This document shows positions 3,857-28,821 of a DNA stretch of 40,693 nt, piece after piece. The notes beneath the pieces were generated by a model. That model saw nothing but the letters and a program-made list of their open reading frames with translations, did no database searches and was not told where the DNA came from. The position numbers were made by a program, and so were the translations under genes. The stretch comes from a virus (taxonomy: Duplodnaviria > Caudoviricetes). The stretch lies in the IMG/VR virus record IMGVR_UViG_3300017909_002489, positions 1-40,693 of that record; one strand, given 5' to 3'. How positions within the stretch are numbered: the first letter of the stretch is position 1; every line of letters starts with the position of its first letter.

Positions 3857-3861
3857 GGAAG

Positions 3862-3940
3862 TGGAGGCGGTGGGACTCGAACCCACGTTCCTTACGCTGC
3901 CCTCGTGGGGATTCTTGTAAGGTCTTTCCTATTCGCCCCC
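3862..3940 (-). ncRNA. tmRNA tRNA-like-domain-only RNA (mini-tmRNA / tRNA-Ala mimic), 79 nt
   Basis: Acceptor GGGGGCG/CGCCTCC with G3:U70 and discriminator A. Stemless D loop AATAGGAAAGA, helix CCTTAC/GTAAGG, AAC linker, T arm GTGGG-TTCGAGT-CCCAC. No anticodon arm, no tag ORF, CCA not encoded. Confidence 0.8.
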
Positions 3941-18632: not shown

Positions 18633-19111
18633 CCTAGAATGCGGAAACTAGGGGCATCTCAGCCTGGAGCTGGGTTGGTCAAGGTTGGTCAAGGGCTCTA
18701 TCTAACCTAGAAATTTTTGGGGTCTACGTGATACCCCCGAGCGCGCGCGCAAGCAAGCCTCGGGTCGGTCGCGCGCTCGCGCTCGCCCGCGATCGCGGGC
18801 GGGGGAGGGTAGGCGGACTCTGCTCGGCATCCACCCACCCCCACCCCCGAGCCCGTGCCCCCGTCGATCGACGCTCCCGCCGTCCATAGTCCGCGGCTCA
18901 TCACGGCCGCGGCCGGACTAAGTGCGGAAGGACTAGCCCCGAGCCCCAGCCCGCAGCCCAGCCCCGTCCACCGTCGATCCAGGGCTGGAGATCCGCAGCC
19001 CCAGCGCGAGGCCCCGACCGATCGACGGCCGAGGCGACCGCCCCCAGGAAATTCGGACAAACCTGGACCCAGCTCACTTTCGAGACATACCGTGGCAAAG
19101 GGTTCGAGTGC

Positions 19112-19127
19112 GTAACGATTTGATAAC
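19112..19127 (+). promoter_or_regulatory. MtrA/GlnR-like direct-repeat box upstream of the early operon
   Basis: GTAAC-N6-ATAAC matches the GTnAC-N6-GTnAC class of actinobacterial OmpR-family sites. Confidence 0.35.
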
Positions 19128-19197
19128 GTCCGGCGTTTGCCATGGTCCGCCCCCACGCCTCGGCATATGCTGGCCAGACCTGCCCCACCTGGGGCCA

Positions 19198-19207
19198 AAC
19201 ATTGGAG
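19198..19207 (+). repeat. AACATTGGAG start-associated box 1
   Basis: Exact 10-mer 6 nt before ATG 19214; preceded by small hairpin 19182-19195. Confidence 0.9.
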
Positions 19208-19213
19208 ACAGAT

Positions 19214-19540
19214 ATGCCGAACATCATCGACCGCGCCGACCTGCGCACGGTCACCACCTGGGACATCCGCCGCGAGAACTCCGCCGCGGGCTTCCACTTC
19301 TTCGATCAAGCCGCAATGCGTTGGTTCTCGTCGCGCGTGCTCCCGACCATCCACACAGACGGGGCTCGGCTTTTGTTCGTCACGAGCGAGCGCGACACCT
19401 GGAACGACCAGCCCCGCCTCTACACAGTTCGGGAGTTCGATCTCACCACGGCCGAGATCATTACCCACGGATTCCAGAAATTCACCACGGCCGCCGACGC
19501 CCACGCAGAAGCGCGCAACATCCTGGGGGTGACCGCATGA
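19214..19540 (+). CDS. Early hypothetical protein (108 aa)
   Basis: ATG after box 1; MPNIIDRADL...GFHFFDQAAMRWFSSRV. Confidence 0.85.
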   Translation: MPNIIDRADLRTVTTWDIRRENSAAGFHFFDQAAMRWFSSRVLPTIHTDGARLLFVTSERDTWNDQPRLYTVREFDLTTAEIITHGFQKFTTAADAHAEARNILGVTA

Positions 19541-19773
19541 ACGCCCCAGGAACCGCGCGGAACCTAACCGCCGCCCCCGTCGATGAGCCGACCCACGTCC
19601 GGACGGATTGCTGCGACCTAGTGACCTGGCCGCTGCACACTTTCCTCGCCCGTGACGGTGTTGGCGACGTCGTGCGGATCTGCCGCACGGGGCACGGTTG
19701 CCTCTCCGACGTCCTGAGCCGCCCCTACTACCAGGGGACCTACCGCGTGGACCCGCCAGGGGTGACCCGATGA
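19537..19773 (+). CDS. Early hypothetical protein (78 aa, Cys-containing)
   Basis: ATGA overlap, GGGGTGA RBS. Confidence 0.7.
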   Translation: MNAPGTARNLTAAPVDEPTHVRTDCCDLVTWPLHTFLARDGVGDVVRICRTGHGCLSDVLSRPYYQGTYRVDPPGVTR

Positions 19774-20003
19774 CCGCGCCAGACCGTCGCACGTGGACGG
19801 ACTGCGCAGCGTGCGAGTGCCGCCCCCGCGCGGTCTGTGACTGCTCCTGCCACCCGATCCCGACCGCGTGCCTGTGGTGCTACGAGCCTGCCGAGGTCGC
19901 CACCTGGACGCCCGTCAATGGATGGATCGACCTATGCACGCGACACCACGCCCAGACCGCGCGGGAAGTAGTGGCAAACATCATCGAAAAAGCCACGCGA
20001 TGA
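19770..20003 (+). CDS. Early Cys-rich putative Zn-binding protein (77 aa)
   Basis: ATGA overlap; CAACEC...CDCSCH...CLWC...CTRH. Confidence 0.7.
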   Translation: MTAPDRRTWTDCAACECRPRAVCDCSCHPIPTACLWCYEPAEVATWTPVNGWIDLCTRHHAQTAREVVANIIEKATR

Positions 20004-20092
20004 CCGCCGCATACCTGGCATTCATGGCCGCGCTGTTCGCCGTCGGATTCATGGAACAGACGCTCATGGTGCGCGACGAGATCCGCCGCTGA
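20000..20092 (+). CDS. Small membrane peptide (30 aa)
   Basis: ATGA overlap; MTAAYLAFMAALFAVGFMEQTLMVRDEIRR. Confidence 0.6.
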   Translation: MTAAYLAFMAALFAVGFMEQTLMVRDEIRR

Positions 20093-20093
20093 C

Positions 20094-20137
20094 CGCTTGC
20101 CTACGCCGCCCAGCGCGCTGGACGGCTAGGGGAGGCG
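20094..20137 (+). other. Long imperfect intergenic hairpin (candidate RNase III processing site)
   Basis: CGCTT-GCCTA-C-GCCG-C-CCAGC-GC-GCTGG-A-CGGC-TAGG-GG-AGGCG between a stop codon and box 2; no U-tract. Confidence 0.55.
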
Positions 20138-20154
20138 ACCCAGCCCCCGAACCG

Positions 20155-20164
20155 AACATTGGAG
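20155..20164 (+). repeat. AACATTGGAG start-associated box 2
   Basis: Exact 10-mer 5 nt before ATG 20170. Confidence 0.9.
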
Positions 20165-20169
20165 ACAGC

Positions 20170-20571
20170 ATGACCAACGTAAGTGCAGACACCTGCCGCA
20201 AGGTAACCGCCGAGATCCGCGCAGCCGTGGAACCGATCCTGGAAGCCCACGGGCTCACCATGGACAAGACGAGCGCGAAGTACGGCGACCTATACGCCCT
20301 CACGATCAAAGCCCACGGAAAAAGCGTGAACGCGGACGGGATCGACGAGGGCGACCCGCAGGTTCAGGACTGGTTCACGATGGCCCGAATCCATGGAGTG
20401 CCAGACCCCGCGGAGTGGATGACCACACCCCGCAAAATCCGCGGCCGCGATTACGTCGTAGTGGGCTGGGCGTACCGGAGCCGAAAGTACCCGCTGCTCA
20501 TGCGCGACCTGTCCGACGGCAAGGTCTACAAGTTCCAGGAAAGCGTGCTGGAGCAATTCCTCAACGTCTAG
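20170..20571 (+). CDS. Early hypothetical protein (133 aa)
   Basis: ATG after box 2; C-terminal GWAYRSRKYPLLMRDLSDGKVYKF. Confidence 0.85.
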   Translation: MTNVSADTCRKVTAEIRAAVEPILEAHGLTMDKTSAKYGDLYALTIKAHGKSVNADGIDEGDPQVQDWFTMARIHGVPDPAEWMTTPRKIRGRDYVVVGWAYRSRKYPLLMRDLSDGKVYKFQESVLEQFLNV

Positions 20572-20633
20572 GCGAAACCGCCCCACGGGGCGGTCTAGCG
20601 GCTTGACGACCCGCTACTGACGAGCCGAGTCAA
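20571..20633 (+). ncRNA. Type II hammerhead ribozyme 1 (predicted cleavage after C20595)
   Basis: GGC-GAAA-CCGCCCC-AC-GGGGCGG-TC-TAGCGG-CTTGACGAC-CCGCTA-CTGACGA-GCC. Full catalytic core, stems I-III, GUC site, and a loop I TTGAC / 3' GTCAA pseudoknot. Confidence 0.93.
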
Positions 20634-20643
20634 AACATTGGAG
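20634..20643 (+). repeat. AACATTGGAG start-associated box 3
   Basis: Exact 10-mer abutting ribozyme 1, 5 nt before ATG 20649. Confidence 0.9.
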
Positions 20644-20648
20644 AACGC

Positions 20649-20948
20649 ATGATGACCACGTTCAGCGTTTCCTGGCATGAAACCAGGGAAGAACGCAAAG
20701 AACCTGACGCGATGGCCCCGATTGAGTTCCGCGGGTTATCCGTCGAGATCCACAGCGGAGACGCGATTGACGACATAGAGATCGTCTGGGCACCCCTGGA
20801 GCACTCCAGGCAATACCTAGATCCTGGCGACCTGTACGAGATCCAAGAGGTCGTCGCTCAAGCGATCGCCCACTACGAGGAACGCGCCGCCGCTTCCAAA
20901 GCTGCGATCGCCGAGTGGCGCGCAAGCCGCGAGGAGGCCCAATCATGA
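20649..20948 (+). CDS. Early hypothetical acidic protein (99 aa)
   Basis: ATG after box 3. Confidence 0.8.
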   Translation: MMTTFSVSWHETREERKEPDAMAPIEFRGLSVEIHSGDAIDDIEIVWAPLEHSRQYLDPGDLYEIQEVVAQAIAHYEERAAASKAAIAEWRASREEAQS

Positions 20949-21124
20949 GCAAGCCAATCACGATGACTGTGTACCTGTACGCGGACGAGGGCGAGAACCC
21001 TCGGAAGTGGAACGTCGCCGAATGGCTGGATGACCCGACGGTAGTCGGCTGGGACATCGAAACAGGACACCCCGAAGGCTGCTCTGGCTGCGCCACCAAC
21101 GATCGACAGGAGGCCCGAGCATGA
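20945..21124 (+). CDS. Early hypothetical protein (59 aa)
   Basis: ATGA overlap, GAGGAGG RBS; MSKPITMTVYLY...HPEGCSGC. Confidence 0.7.
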   Translation: MSKPITMTVYLYADEGENPRKWNVAEWLDDPTVVGWDIETGHPEGCSGCATNDRQEARA

Positions 21125-21711
21125 GCGAGAGCAAGAAAAGAATCGACGCTGCCCTAGACAAGATTGCCGAGGCGATGGGCGACCTAACCGAAGCAGTACG
21201 GACAGCCGACGACCACGATTGGGCAAACAATTACCTGTCGGCCATGTTCGACGTCGCTGGGTTCACCCAATCGACCGAAGAAGCCCAGCACGCGCTCATG
21301 CTCACAGAGCAAGATCGACGGGAAACCTGGAACAACAATCGGCCGCCCATAGATCTGAACGCCGTGGGTTACGTCGTCCGACAGATCACGGGCTACGACG
21401 TCAAGTTGGAGCAGACCGGAGGCGGAACCGCCACCATGTACGTCTACGCCGACGGAATCGACAACGCCCTCGCGGTCGCTGGGCCTGGATGGTTCACGAC
21501 CCCATCGTGGACAAAAGCACTCGCGGATTGGGACGGGTTCTGCATTGGCTTGGACGACGATGGCGAGGACTTCTGGTGGTATCCGCAGCAGGAGTTCCCC
21601 TGCCCGACCGACCAGGAGATTGCCCAGATCATCGCCGACTACGCCGGAGCCACCCACGAGAACATCCGCACGGATTGGAGGAACGTAGACGTCAAGCCCT
21701 CCTGGGCCTAG
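21121..21711 (+). CDS. Early hypothetical protein (196 aa)
   Basis: ATGA overlap, AGGAGG RBS; EQTGGGTATMY motif. Confidence 0.8.
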   Translation: MSESKKRIDAALDKIAEAMGDLTEAVRTADDHDWANNYLSAMFDVAGFTQSTEEAQHALMLTEQDRRETWNNNRPPIDLNAVGYVVRQITGYDVKLEQTGGGTATMYVYADGIDNALAVAGPGWFTTPSWTKALADWDGFCIGLDDDGEDFWWYPQQEFPCPTDQEIAQIIADYAGATHENIRTDWRNVDVKPSWA

Positions 21712-21769
21712 CGAAACGCCCGAGAGGGCGTCGCGCGGAGTGCCGACCCGCGCCTGATGAGCAGAGGCA
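21711..21769 (+). ncRNA. Type II hammerhead ribozyme 2 (predicted cleavage after C21732)
   Basis: GC-GAAA-CGCCC-GAGA-GGGCG-TC-GCGCGG-AGTGCCGAC-CCGCGC-CTGATGA-GC. Full core, GNRA-capped stem III, 2-bp stem II, and a loop I TGCC / 3' GGCA pseudoknot. Confidence 0.92.
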
Positions 21770-21771
21770 GA

Positions 21772-21781
21772 AACATTGGAG
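21772..21781 (+). repeat. AACATTGGAG start-associated box 4
   Basis: Exact 10-mer just after ribozyme 2, 5 nt before ATG 21787. Confidence 0.9.
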
Positions 21782-21786
21782 AAACC

Positions 21787-22272
21787 ATGTTGCACCACAA
21801 GTACGAGGTGACGATCCGATTCACCACGGATCGACCCCTCACAGAGCACGAGCGAAACTGTCTGGAGTCCTACACCTGCGCCCAAGTGGACGACCCAGCG
21901 ATCCACAACAACGCCGGAGAGATCCAGGACGCCGAGTTCCGCACCTGGGTTCAGAGCGTCGATCTCGCATGGACGGGCTTTATCCGCCGCCCCGTAACTT
22001 CCGTCGAGGACAATGTTGATCCGCAGAACTTCTCTGCTGACATACATGTTTGCGAGGAATCCGAGTGGCGATTCCTGGACTGTGACAAGTGCGAAGAATG
22101 CGAGATCCGGATCTGCGTCGATTGCGGAGCCGAGGTCGGGGCCGAACCGACCCCAACCTGCGACGTCTGCGCCCAGCCCTGCGACGAGCAGCAGCGCGAA
22201 TGGTGCGGAACCTGCGGGAACTGCGCCGACCATTGTGCAGCCGAGATGGACTGCGCGGGGGTGACGGCATGA
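21787..22272 (+). CDS. Early protein with Cys-rich C-terminus (161 aa)
   Basis: ATG after box 4; multiple CxxC pairs. Confidence 0.8.
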   Translation: MLHHKYEVTIRFTTDRPLTEHERNCLESYTCAQVDDPAIHNNAGEIQDAEFRTWVQSVDLAWTGFIRRPVTSVEDNVDPQNFSADIHVCEESEWRFLDCDKCEECEIRICVDCGAEVGAEPTPTCDVCAQPCDEQQREWCGTCGNCADHCAAEMDCAGVTA

Positions 22273-22469
22273 GCGCGTACCCCGACGGCTTCTACAACGT
22301 GACGATCGTTCACGACCTGTTCACGATCACGACGATGGTCATGGCCGACGATGACGAGGACGCGACCAAAACCGCCAAGCAGTTCCTCACCCAGGATCAA
22401 GGCTTGCCCGATTGGGTAGCCGAGAACGCCATAAGCGTCCAGGTCGAGTTGGAAGGGGTGTTCCGATGA
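22269..22469 (+). CDS. Early hypothetical protein (66 aa)
   Basis: ATGA overlap, GGGGTGA RBS; MSAYPDGFYNV... Confidence 0.75.
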   Translation: MSAYPDGFYNVTIVHDLFTITTMVMADDDEDATKTAKQFLTQDQGLPDWVAENAISVQVELEGVFR

Positions 22470-22780
22470 GCGAGGTACAAGTGCAAAGGCAGGCGACGGT
22501 CGAAGCGGTCCATCGCGCGCTCGGCGAATCACAACGCCGCCGCGTAAAGCAAGTGCAACTGTTGGAAAACCAGATTGACGATCTCATAGGAACGTTGCAC
22601 AGGCTCAAGCATGATCTCGCCGCCGAAGATCCCATGGAGAGATGGGGGAGAGGCGGTCATTGGGAACGGAATGGCGAGTTGCAAGGGTACGGCGGAAAAC
22701 TCGATATGCGCCTTGCCGTGCTCGCAGGTATCGACCATGAGATCCGCGCCCTGAATGAAATACGGGAGGTCTGGCGATGA
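22466..22780 (+). CDS. Early hypothetical coiled-coil protein (104 aa)
   Basis: ATGA overlap; MSEVQVQRQ... Confidence 0.7.
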   Translation: MSEVQVQRQATVEAVHRALGESQRRRVKQVQLLENQIDDLIGTLHRLKHDLAAEDPMERWGRGGHWERNGELQGYGGKLDMRLAVLAGIDHEIRALNEIREVWR

Positions 22781-23145
22781 AAAACCCATCCTGGCTCACG
22801 CCCGAAGGATTCCTGGCGATCTGCGCCGTGAACACGACCGAGGTCACCGGAGAGCGAGAACGCCTCGCCGACTACACCAAAACCGTGACCGAAGTGCCCA
22901 AGGGGACGGGCTGGCCGAAACTCTCCAGGGATCTCCAGGAGTGCTGGGAGCACCTAATACGGGAGTGCTGGTCGATTGACGCGATGATGACTAACGCCGA
23001 AACCCTGTACCCGCGGGAACGGCTCACGCCGGAATCCTGGGTGCAGGTGAGAGGGGAGGTTTATCGCATGACGCTCACCTATGACCGGCTCGCACGCGAC
23101 ACGCGAGCCCAGCTCGCCCACGCCCGAGCTGAGATCAGCGGGTAA
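22777..23145 (+). CDS. Early hypothetical protein (122 aa)
   Basis: ATGA overlap, GGGAGG RBS. Confidence 0.75.
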   Translation: MKNPSWLTPEGFLAICAVNTTEVTGERERLADYTKTVTEVPKGTGWPKLSRDLQECWEHLIRECWSIDAMMTNAETLYPRERLTPESWVQVRGEVYRMTLTYDRLARDTRAQLAHARAEISG

Positions 23146-23166
23146 GATTGCCACCATCCGCCGGAT

Positions 23167-23221
23167 CTCCTGGTGGTGGCCTCCGGCCAGGTTCCACAGC
23201 CTGTCCGGAGGCTGCCAGGAG
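23167..23221 (+). other. Long imperfect intergenic hairpin (candidate RNase III processing site)
   Basis: CTCCTGGT-GGT-GGCCTCCGG-C-CAGG-TTCCACAG-CCTG-T-CCGGAGGCT-GCCAGGAG, upstream of box 5. Confidence 0.55.
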
Positions 23222-23239
23222 GAGAGCCCTCCGAGAGCA

Positions 23240-23249
23240 AACATTGGAG
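23240..23249 (+). repeat. AACATTGGAG start-associated box 5
   Basis: Exact 10-mer 5 nt before ATG 23255. Confidence 0.9.
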
Positions 23250-23254
23250 CACCA

Positions 23255-23659
23255 ATGGGAATGGACATCTACGCCCACGATCCGATCAACCCCGAGAATG
23301 ATTATTGGCGGTCGAGCATTGGGCATTGGTCAAAACTAGGCGGCTACGTCTACGACGTTGCTGGAGCCACGATCGACACGATCACCCCAGGCAAAGATAA
23401 TTGGTTCAGCAACGCTGGCGACTTCATAGACGAGGAAGCCTGCACGCGCATAGCCGCCGAGGTCCGCTGGCACATACAAGAAAACGGCCTACCCGAGACA
23501 CCCAAGGTCAGCAACAACCCGACGTCCGACCTGATGGGCGTCATCGAAAGATCCCTCGGAGCCAACATCATCGACTGCACACCACGCAATCTGGTGGCCG
23601 AGCAGATCATCGAGTTCTGCGAGTTCCTAGAAAACAGCCGCGGAATCCGCATTCTCTAG
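23255..23659 (+). CDS. Early hypothetical protein (134 aa)
   Basis: ATG after box 5; MGMDIY...EFCEFLENSRGIRIL. Confidence 0.85.
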   Translation: MGMDIYAHDPINPENDYWRSSIGHWSKLGGYVYDVAGATIDTITPGKDNWFSNAGDFIDEEACTRIAAEVRWHIQENGLPETPKVSNNPTSDLMGVIERSLGANIIDCTPRNLVAEQIIEFCEFLENSRGIRIL

Positions 23660-23692
23660 CCCAATTTGCCATCATCTCCCGAAAGGAAAACC

Positions 23693-23845
23693 ATGGCCCT
23701 TTACCTGGCCCTCACGATCGGCACGATCATCGTCGCCGGACTGTTCATTCACCACGACGCTTACGAGCGCGGCCGCGAGCACGGCCGCAACCTGGAACGC
23801 GCGCAAACTCGACACCCAGCAAGCAACGTCCGAGTAAGCCGATGA
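23693..23845 (+). CDS. Small membrane protein (50 aa)
   Basis: AAAGGAAA RBS; MALYLALTIGTIIVAGLFIHHDAYERGREHG...; below the ORF-track cutoff. Confidence 0.7.
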   Translation: MALYLALTIGTIIVAGLFIHHDAYERGREHGRNLERAQTRHPASNVRVSR

Positions 23846-23976
23846 CGTTCCAAGCGATCTCCGCTTACTGCAAAAAGCGTGTCGGGCAGCAGCCCGAACA
23901 CGATCGCTGCTACGGCAGGGGATGGGAGTGGTTGGAATGCTCCTGCCCCTGCCACGAGCCAGAAAACGCAACGTGA
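23842..23976 (+). CDS. Small Cys/His-rich protein (44 aa)
   Basis: ATGA overlap; C...HDRC...CSCPCH. Confidence 0.65.
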   Translation: MTFQAISAYCKKRVGQQPEHDRCYGRGWEWLECSCPCHEPENAT

Positions 23977-24368
23977 ACTACGAGCGCGAGAAACTAAACG
24001 ATCTGGTCTGGATCAAAACCAAGTACGGCGGCCCGTACAGCCACGGCATGTTGTATCGCAACTATCAGTTCGAGGGATACCCCGACGGACGCGCCGCCTA
24101 CGAGGTTGGAGACACGAGCGTCAAGTTGGATGGCACACCCAATCTTGTGCTGGCCGAAGGCCAGGTGAAATACAACGCTTGCGAACTGTTCGCGAACGTC
24201 TGGGCCAAGTCCACCGAACTCCTCAGAGTCGAGGAGCGAAACCACGACGCCTACGTCCGACTCCAAGTGTGGCTCGCACCAGGCGACGACGTACACACCG
24301 CCGAGGCTCTAGAACATCTCGCCGGACAGATCCGAGCCAACGCCGCAGCAAAGGAGCAGCACCCATGA
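23973..24368 (+). CDS. Hypothetical protein (131 aa)
   Basis: GTGA overlap with the previous gene. Confidence 0.65.
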   Translation: MNYEREKLNDLVWIKTKYGGPYSHGMLYRNYQFEGYPDGRAAYEVGDTSVKLDGTPNLVLAEGQVKYNACELFANVWAKSTELLRVEERNHDAYVRLQVWLAPGDDVHTAEALEHLAGQIRANAAAKEQHP

Positions 24369-24688
24369 GATTCCCGTTCCGCAAGAACGAACGCGCGGCC
24401 CTGGAAACAGCCCTGGAGTTGCCGCACAAGACTGTCAGCGAGGCAGCGAAAGCAGCCTGGGACGCGAGCTTGGAGCAGTTTCTCGCACGCGAGATGTGGG
24501 TTGTGCTGGTCCGAGATCCAGGGGTAGGGCTGTTCGCATACGGCGTTTACCCCACGCCAAACGCTGCAAATACAGCAATCAAAAAGGGGGAAATCTTTAG
24601 TGCTAGTTCCGGCGCAGTAGGAGTCGTGACGCGCCTCAACAGCCATGAAATAGAGCAATACCACCACGAGCAGGAGGAACTATTTTGA
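24365..24688 (+). CDS. Hypothetical protein (107 aa)
   Basis: ATGA overlap, AAGGAG RBS; MRFPFRKNERAALE... Confidence 0.75.
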   Translation: MRFPFRKNERAALETALELPHKTVSEAAKAAWDASLEQFLAREMWVVLVRDPGVGLFAYGVYPTPNAANTAIKKGEIFSASSGAVGVVTRLNSHEIEQYHHEQEELF

Positions 24689-25194
24689 TCGCCTCATTTG
24701 CCACGTTATCCCTGGCCGCCGCCCTGAGTGCGGCCCCTTTACAGGCTGGCGGCCCCGACCATCACACGCTGCAAACCCAGGAAGTAAACATGGAGAAACC
24801 CCATAAGGGCGCATGGGGTGACCAGATCGTAGAAGCCGCTCGCGTGCCGAAAAAGTGGCGAGCATTTGCGGCTTGCGTTTGCGACCGCGAAAGCGGTGGG
24901 ACTCTGGAAAAGATCCAGTCAGGAGTCGGGGCTCGTAACCCCAGCTCGTCTGCGTCCGGTCGTTGGCAGTTCCTCAATTCGTCGTGGAACGAGCCGTTGG
25001 GTTACATCGTTGCCGACCGGCTCAAAAGCAAAGGCGTACCCAAGTCCGTAGCCAAAGAAATCCGCGTCGAGTTACAGGCCATGCCGATCTACGAGTGGCA
25101 CGGGTATTTCCAGGACGTCGGTTTCGTCGCTGTCGTAACCAACGGTGGATGGAGACATTGGAACGGCCACACCTGCAACGGGCGGAGGCCGTAA
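24685..25194 (+). CDS. Secreted lysozyme-like lytic transglycosylase (Rpf/SceD-like, 169 aa)
   Basis: Signal peptide (MIASFATLSLAAALSAAPLQA); catalytic RESGG; ARNPSSSASGRWQFLNSSW; GGWRHW. Confidence 0.75.
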   Translation: MIASFATLSLAAALSAAPLQAGGPDHHTLQTQEVNMEKPHKGAWGDQIVEAARVPKKWRAFAACVCDRESGGTLEKIQSGVGARNPSSSASGRWQFLNSSWNEPLGYIVADRLKSKGVPKSVAKEIRVELQAMPIYEWHGYFQDVGFVAVVTNGGWRHWNGHTCNGRRP

Positions 25195-25511
25195 TGGGTG
25201 GGCAGCAGCGGTATCCGCTGCGTCAAGACAGGAATCGCGCCCTAATGGATCTGCCTCTGACCTACCAAAACTGTCAATGGATGGACCAAGGCGCGTGCAT
25301 TGGGGAAGATCCAAAGTATTGGATGTCCACTTCCGAGGACGAGAAAACACAAGAGATTCGCGAGAACGTCCAGGTCGCAGTCCAGATCTGTCGCAAGTGC
25401 CCCGTCCAATCCGAGTGCCTGTCGCACGCCATGACGTACCTGGAATTGGGGATCTGGGGCGGGACGACAGATATTGAGCGTTCGCTTATGCGGAAGCACC
25501 GAATGGCATGA
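25194..25511 (+). CDS. whiB: WhiB-family Fe-S transcription factor
   Basis: W..QGAC...ICRKCPVQSECL...GIWGGTT...ER: four Cys plus the G(I/V)WGG turn. TAATG coupling; an alternative start is at 25245. Confidence 0.93.
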   Translation: MGGQQRYPLRQDRNRALMDLPLTYQNCQWMDQGACIGEDPKYWMSTSEDEKTQEIRENVQVAVQICRKCPVQSECLSHAMTYLELGIWGGTTDIERSLMRKHRMA

Positions 25512-25633
25512 GTGCGTACCTGTGTCCCGAGTGCAAAGATGACAACAACACAGTCTTGCAGTCGGACTACGGCCCCCACCTAGTCATCAAGTGCGATTCG
25601 TGCGTGCTTGTTTACGGTGCTGCCAAGCCGTAG
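25508..25633 (+). CDS. Zinc-ribbon microprotein (41 aa)
   Basis: ATGA overlap; CPEC...CDSC. Confidence 0.7.
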   Translation: MSAYLCPECKDDNNTVLQSDYGPHLVIKCDSCVLVYGAAKP

Positions 25634-25641
25634 AATAGACC

Positions 25642-25686
25642 GGAAAGGCCCCTGGGTTTCACTCCAATGTACCTGGGGGCCTTTCC
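25642..25686 (+). terminator. Hairpin at the convergence of the two arms; loop is antisense to the AACATTGGAG box
   Basis: GGAAAGGCCCC-TGGGT-[TTCACTCCAATGT]-ACCTG-GGGGCCTTTCC. G:U pairs form only on the + strand. Confidence 0.8.
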
Positions 25687-26385
25687 CTATGCGCCTTCCT
25701 CTGTGCGTCGAGTATCCACTTGAGCAGCAGCGTTACTTCGCCGCTGTCGCATACGCCTCGGTTGCTCACCACCGATAGATCGAATCAGCCTGTTGATCGC
25801 TCGGGACAATCGGTATCGCATAGTCCGATCCTTGACTTTGGCCGAGGCAGCCATGACTTTGACGTCGCTGCCCCCGAACGCGAACCGATCCCACAGGAGC
25901 CTCTTGTCGTTTGGTGGGAGTGAGGCCAAGCCGGCACGGATATCGGAAAGCATGGCGTGGTACTCGAATCCTTCGGATGGCTGCTTTGACGCGCGGACGA
26001 ACTCACCGTGGGGGGCCGCGCTTACCGTGGTTGTGCCGGCGTCCGGATCAAAGGCGTCCGGAAGTAGCTGCTCCACCACGCTGCGCGAGTAGTGGTAGTA
26101 GTCGTCGGGTTTCGTCCCGTCGCGCCGCATCCGCTCTTTCTGGCACATCTTGTGTAGATGGACTCGGAGAGAAGATGAAAGTAACCCTTTGGCATTCTTC
26201 TGAGAGGCTGTCTCATCATCGTCAAGCCAGCCATGGACTTTCCTGGAGTGAGCGAACACCCATATCCACGCCTCTTGACGGAGATCATCCTCTGGGATGT
26301 ATTCCCTTTGAGACTTTGCGACTTGCTTCGCCGTTTGAGTAACGGCCTTGGCGACGAGCGTGTTGAGAAACAACTCGTCATTCAC
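25687..26385 (-). CDS. Sigma-70/ECF-like transcription factor (232 aa)
   Basis: Region-2-like EDDLRQEAWIW and region-4-like LASLPPNDKRLLWDRF...TMRYRLSRAINRL. Confidence 0.7.
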   Translation of the reverse strand: MNDELFLNTLVAKAVTQTAKQVAKSQREYIPEDDLRQEAWIWVFAHSRKVHGWLDDDETASQKNAKGLLSSSLRVHLHKMCQKERMRRDGTKPDDYYHYSRSVVEQLLPDAFDPDAGTTTVSAAPHGEFVRASKQPSEGFEYHAMLSDIRAGLASLPPNDKRLLWDRFAFGGSDVKVMAASAKVKDRTMRYRLSRAINRLIRSIGGEQPRRMRQRRSNAAAQVDTRRTEEGA

Positions 26386-27131: not shown

Positions 27132-27528
27132 TTTCCTTCGGTAGTGACTTGGCGAGTCGGCCTATGAGAAGGGAAATCATGGCGATGTAGTTCTGTGCGT
27201 CCGCGAGTTCTTCCTGTAACCCTTGGATAAGTTCTTGAAGTTTCATCTCCTCGAACTTTTGATGAGTGCCACGGTCGTACTGCACCATGCCATCACCCTC
27301 AACCCGCTGGGCGCACCAGCGAGCAAAGTCTCTGACGTATTGCGCCAGCTCGTAACTTGTTATCCCGTAGTCTGGCGAACCTGGGGGACGCGCAACAGAA
27401 CCGTCCCGTCCGCTTGGTTCGCTGAGACAATTTGCATCCCCGTGGCTTTCAGCATTTCCAGCACTCTTGTCCATTCGTAATCTGTCAAGGCTGGGCCAGT
27501 CATAGCGGGGGATTCCTCCGTAGGTCAT
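27073..27528 (-). CDS. Hypothetical protein with MazG-like helical motif (151 aa)
   Basis: QKFEEM...QEELADAQNY; ATGA overlap with primase. Confidence 0.5.
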   Translation of the reverse strand: MTYGGIPRYDWPSLDRLRMDKSAGNAESHGDANCLSEPSGRDGSVARPPGSPDYGITSYELAQYVRDFARWCAQRVEGDGMVQYDRGTHQKFEEMKLQELIQGLQEELADAQNYIAMISLLIGRLAKSLPKESDERETGMGNTGSPDPVSR

Positions 27529-28151
27529 AGTGCTCTCAATATCTCTCGTAGTTGTTCAGCTCCGTGTTTGACATAGATGGAGTTCGTGTCCTCGCCAGAG
27601 GGAAGTTCGACCATGGTCGCGTCAATTTCTTCGACCATCTTCTTCCCGAAATCTCGTCCAGCCTCGTCCCCATCAGCCAGGACGATGATCCGGTCAAAGT
27701 CCTCAAAGAGCCATCGCCACGACTTGTTCCAAGCCTTCGACCCTGGTACACCCACGGCGGTCACGCCCATTTGTGTAAGGGTCATCTGATCTAGTTCCCC
27801 CTCGACGACGACTGCTTCTCGGCTGTCACCGAGCAAGCAACTAACCCCGAATAGGTGAGGCATGGCCCCGCTACGCGACAGATACTTAGGCGTGGAGTCG
27901 TCCAGGGTGCGAAACCGCAACGCAACGACCTCGCCGGAGGCACATATGTAGGGGATTGCGAGTCGTCCGACGTATCGCTCATCGCCCAGACTCGCTGTAT
28001 CTGAGGCTACGACGCCAAGACGGAACATATTGACGGTCCCCTCGGTTAGCCCTCTGCTCACTAGGTAAGGCAGAGCGACCTCGATGTTCTCTTGATACGC
28101 CGCCGTTGCCTTCTCCAGCGATTCCTTTTGCGATTCTGAGAGCCTGTCCAA
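27525..28151 (-). CDS. DNA primase, TOPRIM domain (208 aa)
   Basis: GRLAIPY, KYL, VVEGELD, DGDEAG and DTN motifs of DnaG/T7-type primases. Confidence 0.9.
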   Translation of the reverse strand: MDRLSESQKESLEKATAAYQENIEVALPYLVSRGLTEGTVNMFRLGVVASDTASLGDERYVGRLAIPYICASGEVVALRFRTLDDSTPKYLSRSGAMPHLFGVSCLLGDSREAVVVEGELDQMTLTQMGVTAVGVPGSKAWNKSWRWLFEDFDRIIVLADGDEAGRDFGKKMVEEIDATMVELPSGEDTNSIYVKHGAEQLREILRAL

Positions 28152-28365
28152 AGTCGCATCCTTCCTTTATCTGTATGACTTTCAAGGCGTCGCCCTTGAA
28201 TCCGCACGCATGGCAGTTCACGGCGTTCTTGTCGAAATTGACGGAGGCACTTGCTTGCCTGTCGTCATGTTCCACGCACTTGACGGGAACCCATCCAGGT
28301 CGCTCGCTCGGCAGAGTCCAGCCGTAGTGCTCCAGCACGGGACCGATAGAAAAGTCGTAACTCAC
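27979..28365 (-). CDS. DNA primase zinc-binding (CHC2) domain protein (128 aa)
   Basis: CVEHDD.QASAS...CHACGFKGD. GTG 28365 overlaps the resolvase stop; overlaps the TOPRIM ORF by 173 nt. Confidence 0.85.
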   Translation of the reverse strand: MSYDFSIGPVLEHYGWTLPSERPGWVPVKCVEHDDRQASASVNFDKNAVNCHACGFKGDALKVIQIKEGCDFGQALRIAKGIAGEGNGGVSREHRGRSALPSEQRANRGDRQYVPSWRRSLRYSESGR

Positions 28366-28727
28366 GAGATACCACCCCACCGGAGCAGGTTGATGAACTC
28401 GTCCACGGTCATCACGATGCGACCCTCGCCAGGGCCAGACTGACGAGTCTTGGTGGCGACGAACGCGATCGTGGGCTTGTCGTACTTCTCGCTGTAATTG
28501 TCGGCCTCTGTGAACGCTTGCCGCAGAAAATCTTTCATCTTGTCCCATGCGGAGCGCACGTTCTTGCACTCGCCAATGGCGTCAAAGAACTTTGTGCGGA
28601 TGGAGATGTCCCCGATGTCTTTACTGCCAGCCCGCGGTAGCCGGCGGGCGTCGAGTCCCATCTCGTTGAGGTAGTTCTCTAGGTCGCGCTCCCATGCGCT
28701 GCCCTTCCGCTTGTTCGCGCTACTCAT
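28362..28727 (-). CDS. Holliday junction resolvase-like PD-(D/E)XK nuclease (121 aa)
   Basis: NKRKGSAWERDL...DIGDI...ECKN, an archaeal-type/phage resolvase pattern. Confidence 0.8.
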   Translation of the reverse strand: MSSANKRKGSAWERDLENYLNEMGLDARRLPRAGSKDIGDISIRTKFFDAIGECKNVRSAWDKMKDFLRQAFTEADNYSEKYDKPTIAFVATKTRQSGPGEGRIVMTVDEFINLLRWGGIS

Positions 28728-28821
28728 CAAGTTCCTCCCACGGCAGGCCACAGAAGTTGCACGGCTCGTAAGGCCCATCAGTCCTGTGCTCGTGGTCATC
28801 CAAAGGAAACAAGTCGCTCAT
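28720..28821 (-). CDS. Microprotein with CxxC (33 aa)
   Basis: ATGA overlap with the helicase stop; MSDLFPLDDHEHRTDGPYEPCNFCGLPWEELDE; fills the gap exactly. Confidence 0.55.
   Translation of the reverse strand: MSDLFPLDDHEHRTDGPYEPCNFCGLPWEELDE

Follow-up and report, generated by a model that had tools for sequence, protein, structure and literature searches.

Organization of the early operon

We analysed the early region of a tailed phage (Duplodnaviria; Caudoviricetes) whose whole 40,693-nt record, IMGVR_UViG_3300017909_002489, is the window referred to below. The record carries genes for terminase, portal, capsid, integrase, repressor, WhiB and a sigma-like protein. Small open reading frames (ORFs), almost all without a family, make up a + strand block at 19214-25633 that runs away from terL in the divergent direction; most of the 50 ORFs scanned against PHROG and the 16 scanned against Pfam lacked a family. 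Position and gene make-up suggest that this block is expressed early. Its first part is divided into five cassettes, each headed by the word AACATTGGAG (hereafter the box), with RNA elements in the gaps, and a hairpin after its end carries a loop complementary to the box. We propose that the transcript would be cut into cassettes and that the loop may silence their leaders.

The nearest cultured relatives of the terminase belong to the Streptomyces cluster BF podoviruses (~43% identity; cluster described in PMC9753666), on which ground we infer an actinobacterial host. The best DNA matches to the window come from seawater metagenomes of one study; among the matches listed for 19000-25700 none was RNA, which speaks neither for nor against expression. 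Relatives were collected via terL, to which we added seven named BF phages; the window was also compared with the DNA of contig sets X2-X5, the X5 contigs being mostly 90-95% alike to the window. Labels of the form L### denote relatives or contigs from the searches, among them L234, whose terL is 87% to that of the window.

An earlier note on this DNA had described boxes at 19198, 20155, 20634, 21772 and 23240, each followed by 5-6 nt and ATG. All five are exact copies on the + strand, with spacers of 6, 5, 5, 5 and 5 nt; shuffled sequences contain 0.05 copies on average and 1 at most. The ATGA overlaps said to join genes within cassettes were located at eight positions (19537, 19770, 20000, 20945, 21121, 22269, 22466 and 22777), and the cassette-internal genes use other Shine-Dalgarno (SD) words. 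The layout holds for the five boxes. The gap 23660-23692 and its seven downstream genes lack the box, and the hairpin at 25642-25686 with its complementary loop had been left undescribed, although it falls within the note's coordinates, 19182-25686.

The box has the properties of a start-associated sequence (SAS): a repeated, asymmetric ribosome-binding-site (RBS) word 3-7 nt before ATG, behind gaps of >50 bp and in front of non-structural genes only. Its conservation extends to the closest relatives and no further, other words standing in its place elsewhere, and the box is private to the lineage. The pattern CTGAYGAN{5,22}AACATTGGAG matched 121 stretches of viral contigs, a chance level, and none of those scanned had a hammerhead before the box. 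A tandem-box pattern gave zero matches in 420 loci, and a search with the sigma-like gene returned a 100% copy only.

The short hairpin that had been named as the element of box 1 does form a stem at 19182-19195, but of only 5 bp and in a region of z -1.7. Because this hairpin is weak, and because promoter-like hexamers and an RTAAC repeat lie upstream and recur in relatives, we read box 1 as probably a primary leader; 19182-19195 probably marks the 5' end of the primary transcript, with no cut. With box 1 probably promoter-led, processing is a candidate origin for the other four leaders. The putative promoter P1 was not picked up by a strict sigma-70 scan. The RTAAC repeat is found in 9 of 143 terL-upstream regions, in 7 of those at 716-797 nt from terL; the published MtrA site reads GtnAcC-n5-GTnAcn (PMC13189361). 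We considered TTTGATAAC at 19119 as a boxA and rejected it, since it belongs to the RTAAC repeat. The 19182-19195 hairpin resembles stem III of hammerhead 1 (20578-20593) and may be a remnant.

Table 1. Features of the early region, in window coordinates
Feature	Position	Strand	Remarks
P1, promoter-like TGGACC-N18-TACCGT	19064..19093	+	putative; in L234, TTGACT-N18-TACCGT precedes its first box
GTAAC-N6-ATAAC direct repeat, MtrA/GlnR-like	19112..19127	+	putative; adjoins early promoter
P2, second -10-like hexamer TATGCT	19166..19171	+	putative; lines up with the -10 of L234 when measured from the repeat
Short hairpin before box 1	19182..19195	+	weak
Box 1	19198..19207	+	leader of cassette 1, 19214-20092; four ORFs coupled by ATGA, with DUF7447 first
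Long imperfect hairpin, UGCCUAC/UAGGGGA family	20088..20144	+	core UGCCUACG 20098-20105 / CUAGGGGA 20126-20133; candidate RNase III site
Box 2	20155..20164	+	leader of cassette 2, 20170-20571
Type II hammerhead 1	20570..20635	+	Rfam Hammerhead_II, 46.8 bits; predicted cut after C20595
Box 3	20634..20643	+	leader of cassette 3, 20649-21711; 3 ORFs
Type II hammerhead 2	21709..21770	+	Rfam Hammerhead_II, 46.6 bits; predicted cut after C21732
Box 4	21772..21781	+	leader of cassette 4, 21787-23145; 4 ORFs
Long imperfect hairpin	23163..23228	+	~25 bp, no U-tract; candidate RNase III site
Box 5	23240..23249	+	leader of cassette 5, 23255-23659
Box-less operon tail	23693..25633	+	7 ORFs, including whiB 25194-25511
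TAGAAT, -10-like hexamer	25631..25636	+	putative promoter; 5 nt before the anti-box hairpin, overlaps last stop codon
Anti-box hairpin	25642..25686	+	16-bp stem with two G.U pairs; 13-nt loop 25658-25670; z -5.0

Two type II hammerheads precede boxes 3 and 4

Both hammerhead ribozymes reported in the earlier note score above the gathering score of Hammerhead_II (RF02276; 37). Both have closed stems I and III and an open stem II, as that family requires, and the cores CUGACGA and CUGAUGA, the GAAA and the GUC are all present. The GUC triplets place the predicted 5'-OH ends at 20596 and 21733, in agreement with the note. Each ribozyme has a pseudoknot between loop I and the 3' tail, with differing sequences: UUGAC 20603-20607 pairs with GUCAA 20629-20633 in hammerhead 1 (5 Watson-Crick pairs), described as ending one base before the box, and UGCC 21741-21744 with GGCA 21766-21769 in hammerhead 2 (4 pairs). 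The upstream stop codons are part of the arrangement, TAG 20569-20571 running into stem II of the first and TAG 21709-21711 being fused to the second.

Type II hammerheads occur in 7 of the 102 terL relatives with at least 2.5 kb upstream, plus two shorter ones, always on the early strand, and L015 alone has seven; these counts rest on our own descriptor, Rfam gathering having missed those of L009, L015 and L017. An ORF stop ends 1-8 nt before the GAAA in all 21 distinct hammerheads of the terL relatives, and eight of the 21 have a pseudoknot of at least four pairs. The named BF phages have no hammerheads. Consensus hammerheads self-cleaved in 14 of 18 cases (PMC3088659), and from their sequences we regard both ribozymes of the window as very probably active. 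Cutting as a switch that unmasks the RBS was considered and rejected: box accessibility is 0.63 uncut versus 0.59 cut for one hammerhead and 0.35 versus 0.40 for the other.

A hairpin loop complementary to the box

The gap between the early operon and the convergent sigma-like gene is filled by a hairpin whose loop holds CUCCAAUGU (25662-25670), the complement of ACAUUGGAG. This 9-mer complement of the box occurs once in 40.7 kb, in this loop, and forms 9/9 Watson-Crick pairs with all five boxes, against no more than 7 with any of the 44 other leaders compared. A -10-like hexamer stands ahead of the hairpin in 5 of 7 non-BF cases; a TAnnnT at similar offset is present in L181, L189, L208 and L294, with none in L200 and L286. 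In 15 of 17 cases, folding is more stable on the early strand. Within 25560-25760 no Rfam family reached its gathering score, and the c4 and CI models were not among the five weak hits.

We surveyed 74 regions of at least 5.5 kb, which reduce to 42 clusters, 22 of them with an 8-mer in at least four leaders. A hairpin loop complementary to the cluster's own box lies on the early strand in 14 of these 22 and on the opposite strand in 2. Foreign boxes match loops in 17 of 272 pairs, of which 15 are GA-repeats, and the window's box never does so. A second survey was defined by position, using 24 clusters with a whiB homologue and counting a hairpin as strong at -21 kcal/mol or better. In nine clusters a strong hairpin follows whiB at a distance of 71-146 nt, each of the nine matching at least two leaders of its own cluster; nine other clusters have weak hairpins and no match, and six have no hairpin. 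Permutation reproduced the positional matches in 0 of 20000 trials, kinship being uncorrected. The nine matches comprise three box types, GACTGGA seven times, GACAGGAG and ACATTGGAG; at this same genomic position the loop bases outside the SD core change along with the box (ACATT/AATGT, GACT/AGTC, GACA/TGTC). An exposed loop that is complementary to the leaders and covaries with them is what loop-seeded antisense pairing would look like. The BF phages also have an anti-box loop, which tops a long stem inside the operon, and Streptomyces phage Manuel (S. lividans) combines hairpins, box and anti-box loop.

RNAcofold gave no gain for hairpin and leader together (0 to -0.8 kcal/mol), a result that shows only the stem staying closed, since the program cannot model pairing into a closed loop. 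A wider scan for a stem with CTCCAATG returned 109 hits, 63 of them distinct with long flanks and 5 of those terminator-like. ATTGGAG leaders number 3 in the 45 kb beside the five terminator-like hits versus 3 in 642 kb elsewhere, a hint of enrichment in small numbers. The apparently unrelated contig L483 has exact AACATTGGAG at 2885 and 5176 and, near ~8000, a terminator-like hairpin with a CUCUCCAAUG loop.

The strongest competing explanation limits the system to processing and insulation: the box would be a homogenised strong RBS, the hairpin at 25642 would terminate transcription in both directions, and the match in its loop would regulate nothing. The hairpin does lie between convergent genes, several relatives have a U-rich tail after theirs, many relatives with a private box have no such loop, and the box includes a normal GGAG core. 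This explanation does not account for loop bases outside the SD core that change together with the box at one genomic position, nor for the BF phages, where the loop lies within the operon instead of at a convergent end; for a plain terminator, a 16-bp stem topped by a 13-nt loop would also be unusual. We therefore consider it unlikely, though a serious contender, and think it probable, on the pattern of complementarity, that the anti-box loop acts on the boxes. Of the earlier proposals, a standardised leader is supported, as is co-regulation through the shared box, for which the loop at 25642-25686 is now the candidate reader.

Long hairpins and the UGCCUAC/UAGGGGA family

Boxes 2 and 5 are preceded by the two long imperfect hairpins of the earlier note, which fold with -31.3 kcal/mol (20086-20147, z -2.5) and -47.9 kcal/mol (23160-23232, z -4.5). 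RNase III substrates are imperfect duplexes of ~22 bp, or about two helical turns (PMC3867540), a length that the duplexes here, ~20 and ~25 bp, fit. The enzyme also prefers G near the scissile bond (G at +3; PMC9291653), a preference that discriminates nothing here, the G-run of the 3' arm fitting several registers. From their form, cutting by host RNase III is to us an evenly balanced proposition.

The core of the 20088 hairpin recurs in L234, L242 and L243, which were found through terL. A scan with the core pattern gave 100 matches in 95 stretches (80 distinct sequences), from which we retained the 14 copies with a strong inner hairpin, excluding two loci that duplicate L242 and dropping the rest as chance. 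Aligned with seven terL-derived copies (n=21), they have 88.5% of cells paired and a covariation of 0.674, versus 0.171 when shuffled and at most 0.148 in slid controls. Core invariance is partly built into the search pattern; the outer stem, which the pattern did not select, covaries as well. The window copy scores 53.8 bits with the family model, by construction. Mycobacteriophage Sheen (M. smegmatis) has a member between its genes 78 and 77.

The 20088 hairpin had no Rfam match in the window at E<=1, and 13 motif loci gave chance-level hits only at E<=10. The family model found none in five Streptomyces genomes (150 candidates scored in each, without a positive control) and none in the L5 right arm or the BF phages, and blastn with the window copy gave no full-length phage match. 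In L410 (G006:C1:10000-20000) roughly ten single-gene cassettes follow one another, a stop codon, a long hairpin and a GGGAGGGTTAGCAATG-type box occurring in each, and the UGCCUAC core takes several forms within this one genome.

The family might instead be a new small self-cleaving ribozyme, or the site of a specific protein, and not an RNase III site. Its fixed core between freely covarying stems would suit this, as would its place in the hammerhead slot (17 of 21 copies lie within 11 nt after an ORF stop), its occurrence in phages of 39-65% GC and its lack of an Rfam match. However, the core is partly fixed by the search, and unselected copies vary, with GCCUC/CAGGGG in L412, a broken G-C in L411 and looser variants in L410; the element is a single hairpin without a pseudoknot, and one copy follows a major capsid gene (L418). 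Since the core changes in unselected copies, which merge gradually into generic two-turn hairpins, a degenerate substrate of a protein is favoured over a catalytic core of rigid form, and we regard the ribozyme or specific-site explanation as rather improbable.

The 23163 hairpin falls outside the UGCCUAC family and is retained in an X5 relative from which 23237-23664, with box 5 and its gene, is absent. Copies of TTGCCAYCATC at 23148-23159 and 23666-23677 flank the hairpin, box 5 and its gene, and the 5' arm of the hairpin, GGUGGUGGC (23173-23181), could pair with either copy. In the relative without cassette 5 the second copy is brought beside the hairpin.

Hammerheads and long hairpins replace each other

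Clustering the early proteins of 26 selected regions, we found seven families that mix hammerhead-led and otherwise-led members, two of which have long gaps and are weaker. The cleanest is a helix-turn-helix-like family, preceded by a hammerhead in L009 and L015 and by a hairpin in L013 and L143-L149, with gaps of 72-96 nt; the five hairpins folded have z -1.8 to -3.6. In the BF phages, long hairpins occupy the same kind of gap, ahead of a box of their own, AAGGGAGAGAGA. Because the two elements replace each other before homologous genes, we suggest that they share one job, mRNA processing, and the comparison supports the earlier idea of ribozymes and nuclease sites as interchangeable punctuation.

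The long hairpins could also be attenuators or terminators without a U-tract that set a transcription gradient and are not cut. They are GC-rich and directly follow stop codons, and U-less terminators have been reported in actinobacteria. Their alternation with hammerheads before homologous genes does not fit this role, gaps of 72-110 nt are too small for internal promoters, and the BF-type leaders have a boxA-like word; we judge an attenuator role to be a weak candidate. That word, of TTGAGAACTCA type, lies ~0.8-2.2 kb into the early leader of L015, L009, L010, L013, L016, L017, L143-L145, L147-L149 and L227 and is absent from the window. We take it to resemble actinobacterial rRNA boxA, which suggests antitermination in the BF-type leaders.

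Boxes as module boundaries

Genes are exchanged at the boxes. In L234 a hammerhead stands before the counterpart of the window's first gene, whose box and spacer are identical. X5 alignments stop at 19208 and 20644 and continue into other genes; another starts at 20634, behind a different hammerhead half, so that in relatives the hammerhead upstream of box 3 and the gene downstream of it are both replaced at the box edges. In a 90-95% relative, genes are swapped or missing at boxes 1, 3 and 5. Among the 20 listed X5 breakpoints, 4 are no more than 5 nt away from a box (binomial p 1e-4), but 9 lie at gene starts in general. The earlier suggestion that the box is a recombination joint thus holds as far as the swaps in L234 and X5 go: the boxes are real module boundaries, but other RBS-start stretches behave likewise, and with some breakpoints at gene starts that have no box, the box holds no special rank as a joint.

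A proposed model for cassette processing and silencing

We propose the following scheme. The early transcript would be cut between blocks by the two predicted hammerheads and, probably, by RNase III at the two long hairpins. After a hammerhead cut, the upstream mRNA would keep its stop codon and carry a 3' stem-loop, and the downstream mRNA would have a 5'-OH stem-loop followed by the standard leader, so that the block would be stabilised and insulated; the long hairpins would do the same job through RNase III. The anti-box RNA would either start from a -10-like site of its own or be left as the early transcript's stable 3' end. Its loop would pair over 9 bp across the SD GGAG of the five leaders and occlude translation, and ATGA coupling would extend the block to 13 ORFs. 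The outcome may be early-gene shut-off or negative feedback with lineage-private specificity, late shut-off, feedback and prophage silencing being the possible timings, and the modular junction would allow genes to be exchanged without re-tuning expression. For the scheme as a whole, processing into cassettes with one loop RNA silencing all five leaders, our belief tips only slightly to the positive side.

Several observations weigh against it. Stem II of hammerhead 2 has 2 bp, and of the 102 relatives given above only 7 carry hammerheads. RNase III cutting is argued from hairpin shape only. Eight of the 22 box-bearing clusters have no own-box loop, and 9 of the 14 own-box hits are GA-repeat boxes, so the counts are not independent; likewise, 15 of the 24 whiB clusters lack a strong hairpin at the expected position, and one box accounts for 7 of the 9 positional hits, which means few independent events. 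The loop-box pairing extends over 9 bp only, with -13.7 kcal/mol before opening costs, and no Hfq is known in actinobacteria. The close terL relative L224 sits in a Novosphingobium bin.

The least convincing alternative, which we consider highly improbable, is that a protein of RegA or RegB type reads the box and that the hairpin is an opposite-strand terminator of the sigma gene presenting a sense box decoy: on the minus strand, 25642-25686 folds stably too (-27.3, z -2.8) and shows ACAUUGGAG, and Pope et al. left RNA versus protein binding of SAS open, in the part of PMC3203893 drawn on here, but the G.U pairs favour the + strand, the minus-strand fold hides part of the box, own-box loops prefer the early strand in the cluster survey, and no RNA-binding candidate appeared among the PHROG- and Pfam-scanned ORFs, most of them familyless.

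More tentatively, and with less confidence than in the silencing scheme, we consider an all-RNA regulon in which ribozymes and a new class of cleavable hairpin make plug-in cassettes, one hairpin RNA serves as the master key, and the UGCCUAC/UAGGGGA hairpin may itself self-cleave. If this were true, key and lock would co-evolve between lineages, like an immunity type, and the question of what reads start-associated sequences in actinophages would be answered.

Other observations

Some further features concern other parts of the window or its relatives. At 27525-28799 (-), primase matches two overlapping ORFs, as annotated for phage Manuel genes 55-56. Behind a TTGACA hexamer, 3859-3940 (-) encodes an 82-nt tmRNA-like RNA with the tRNA-like domain only; Rfam tmRNA matches it at E 4e-13 (40.9 bits, below gathering), ARAGORN missed it, and a pattern scan for RNAs of this type found 25 stretches. 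In the upstream regions of L242 and L243 TTTAAA is very frequent, within genes as well as ahead of start codons, and that of L016 and L017 contains 8-13 copies of the short repeat GGAATGCCGCT.

Comparison with known systems

Clustered type II hammerheads that flank genes in prophages were described by Perreault et al. (2011, PMC3088659), who proposed that they give gene- or operon-length mRNAs. The hammerheads of the window are alike in type, in the pseudoknot between loop I and the 3' tail, and in standing several to a polycistron around genes or short blocks. To the part of that account used here, the window adds a shared leader, the replacement of ribozymes by hairpins before homologous genes, and a candidate antisense reader. 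The second likeness is to the SAS and extended SAS (ESAS) of cluster K mycobacteriophages (Pope et al. 2011, PMC3203893). Both are asymmetric RBS repeats 3-7 nt before mostly ATG, after gaps of >50 bp and at non-structural genes, and both have conserved bases unable to pair with 16S rRNA. The word itself differs, the window having five copies of a 10-nt sequence unlike the 13-bp consensus; in place of the 17-bp DNA inverted repeats of cluster K, which are absent here, the upstream elements are RNA structures, and the complementary loop is a candidate reader. The long hairpins recall the RNase III sites of T7 transcripts (Nicholson review, PMC3867540) as intergenic, imperfect two-turn stems before phage RBSs. 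Unlike what is described for T7, they share one operon with ribozymes, the probable host is an actinobacterium, and the cuts are candidates only. The available account of bacterial and phage self-cleaving ribozymes calls their purpose undefined (PMC6765202); this locus makes both that purpose and the SAS reader testable.

The earlier note knew of no description of its combination of elements. Clustered hammerheads proposed to cut phage polycistrons are on record in PMC3088659. We found no paper on hammerhead/hairpin interchange or on an anti-box RNA, supplements and most subscription papers being outside the coverage of the search; as far as it reaches, the parts appear to be of known kinds and their combination with a covarying antisense loop to be undescribed. 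Orthogonal pairs of loop and leader would serve as translation switches for actinobacteria.

Two further systems resemble single steps of the scheme. The c4 RNA of phages P1 and P7 and the CI RNA of P4 are phage stem-loop RNAs in which a short, phage-specific loop pairs with phage transcripts; they act at one anti-repressor or immunity locus, whereas the loop of the window matches a leader repeated before five blocks. RiboJ, an engineered single-copy insulator, likewise joins a ribozyme cut, a hairpin and a fixed leader before the RBS. RiboJ has no trans-acting reader, unlike the system proposed here, which is natural and multi-copy.

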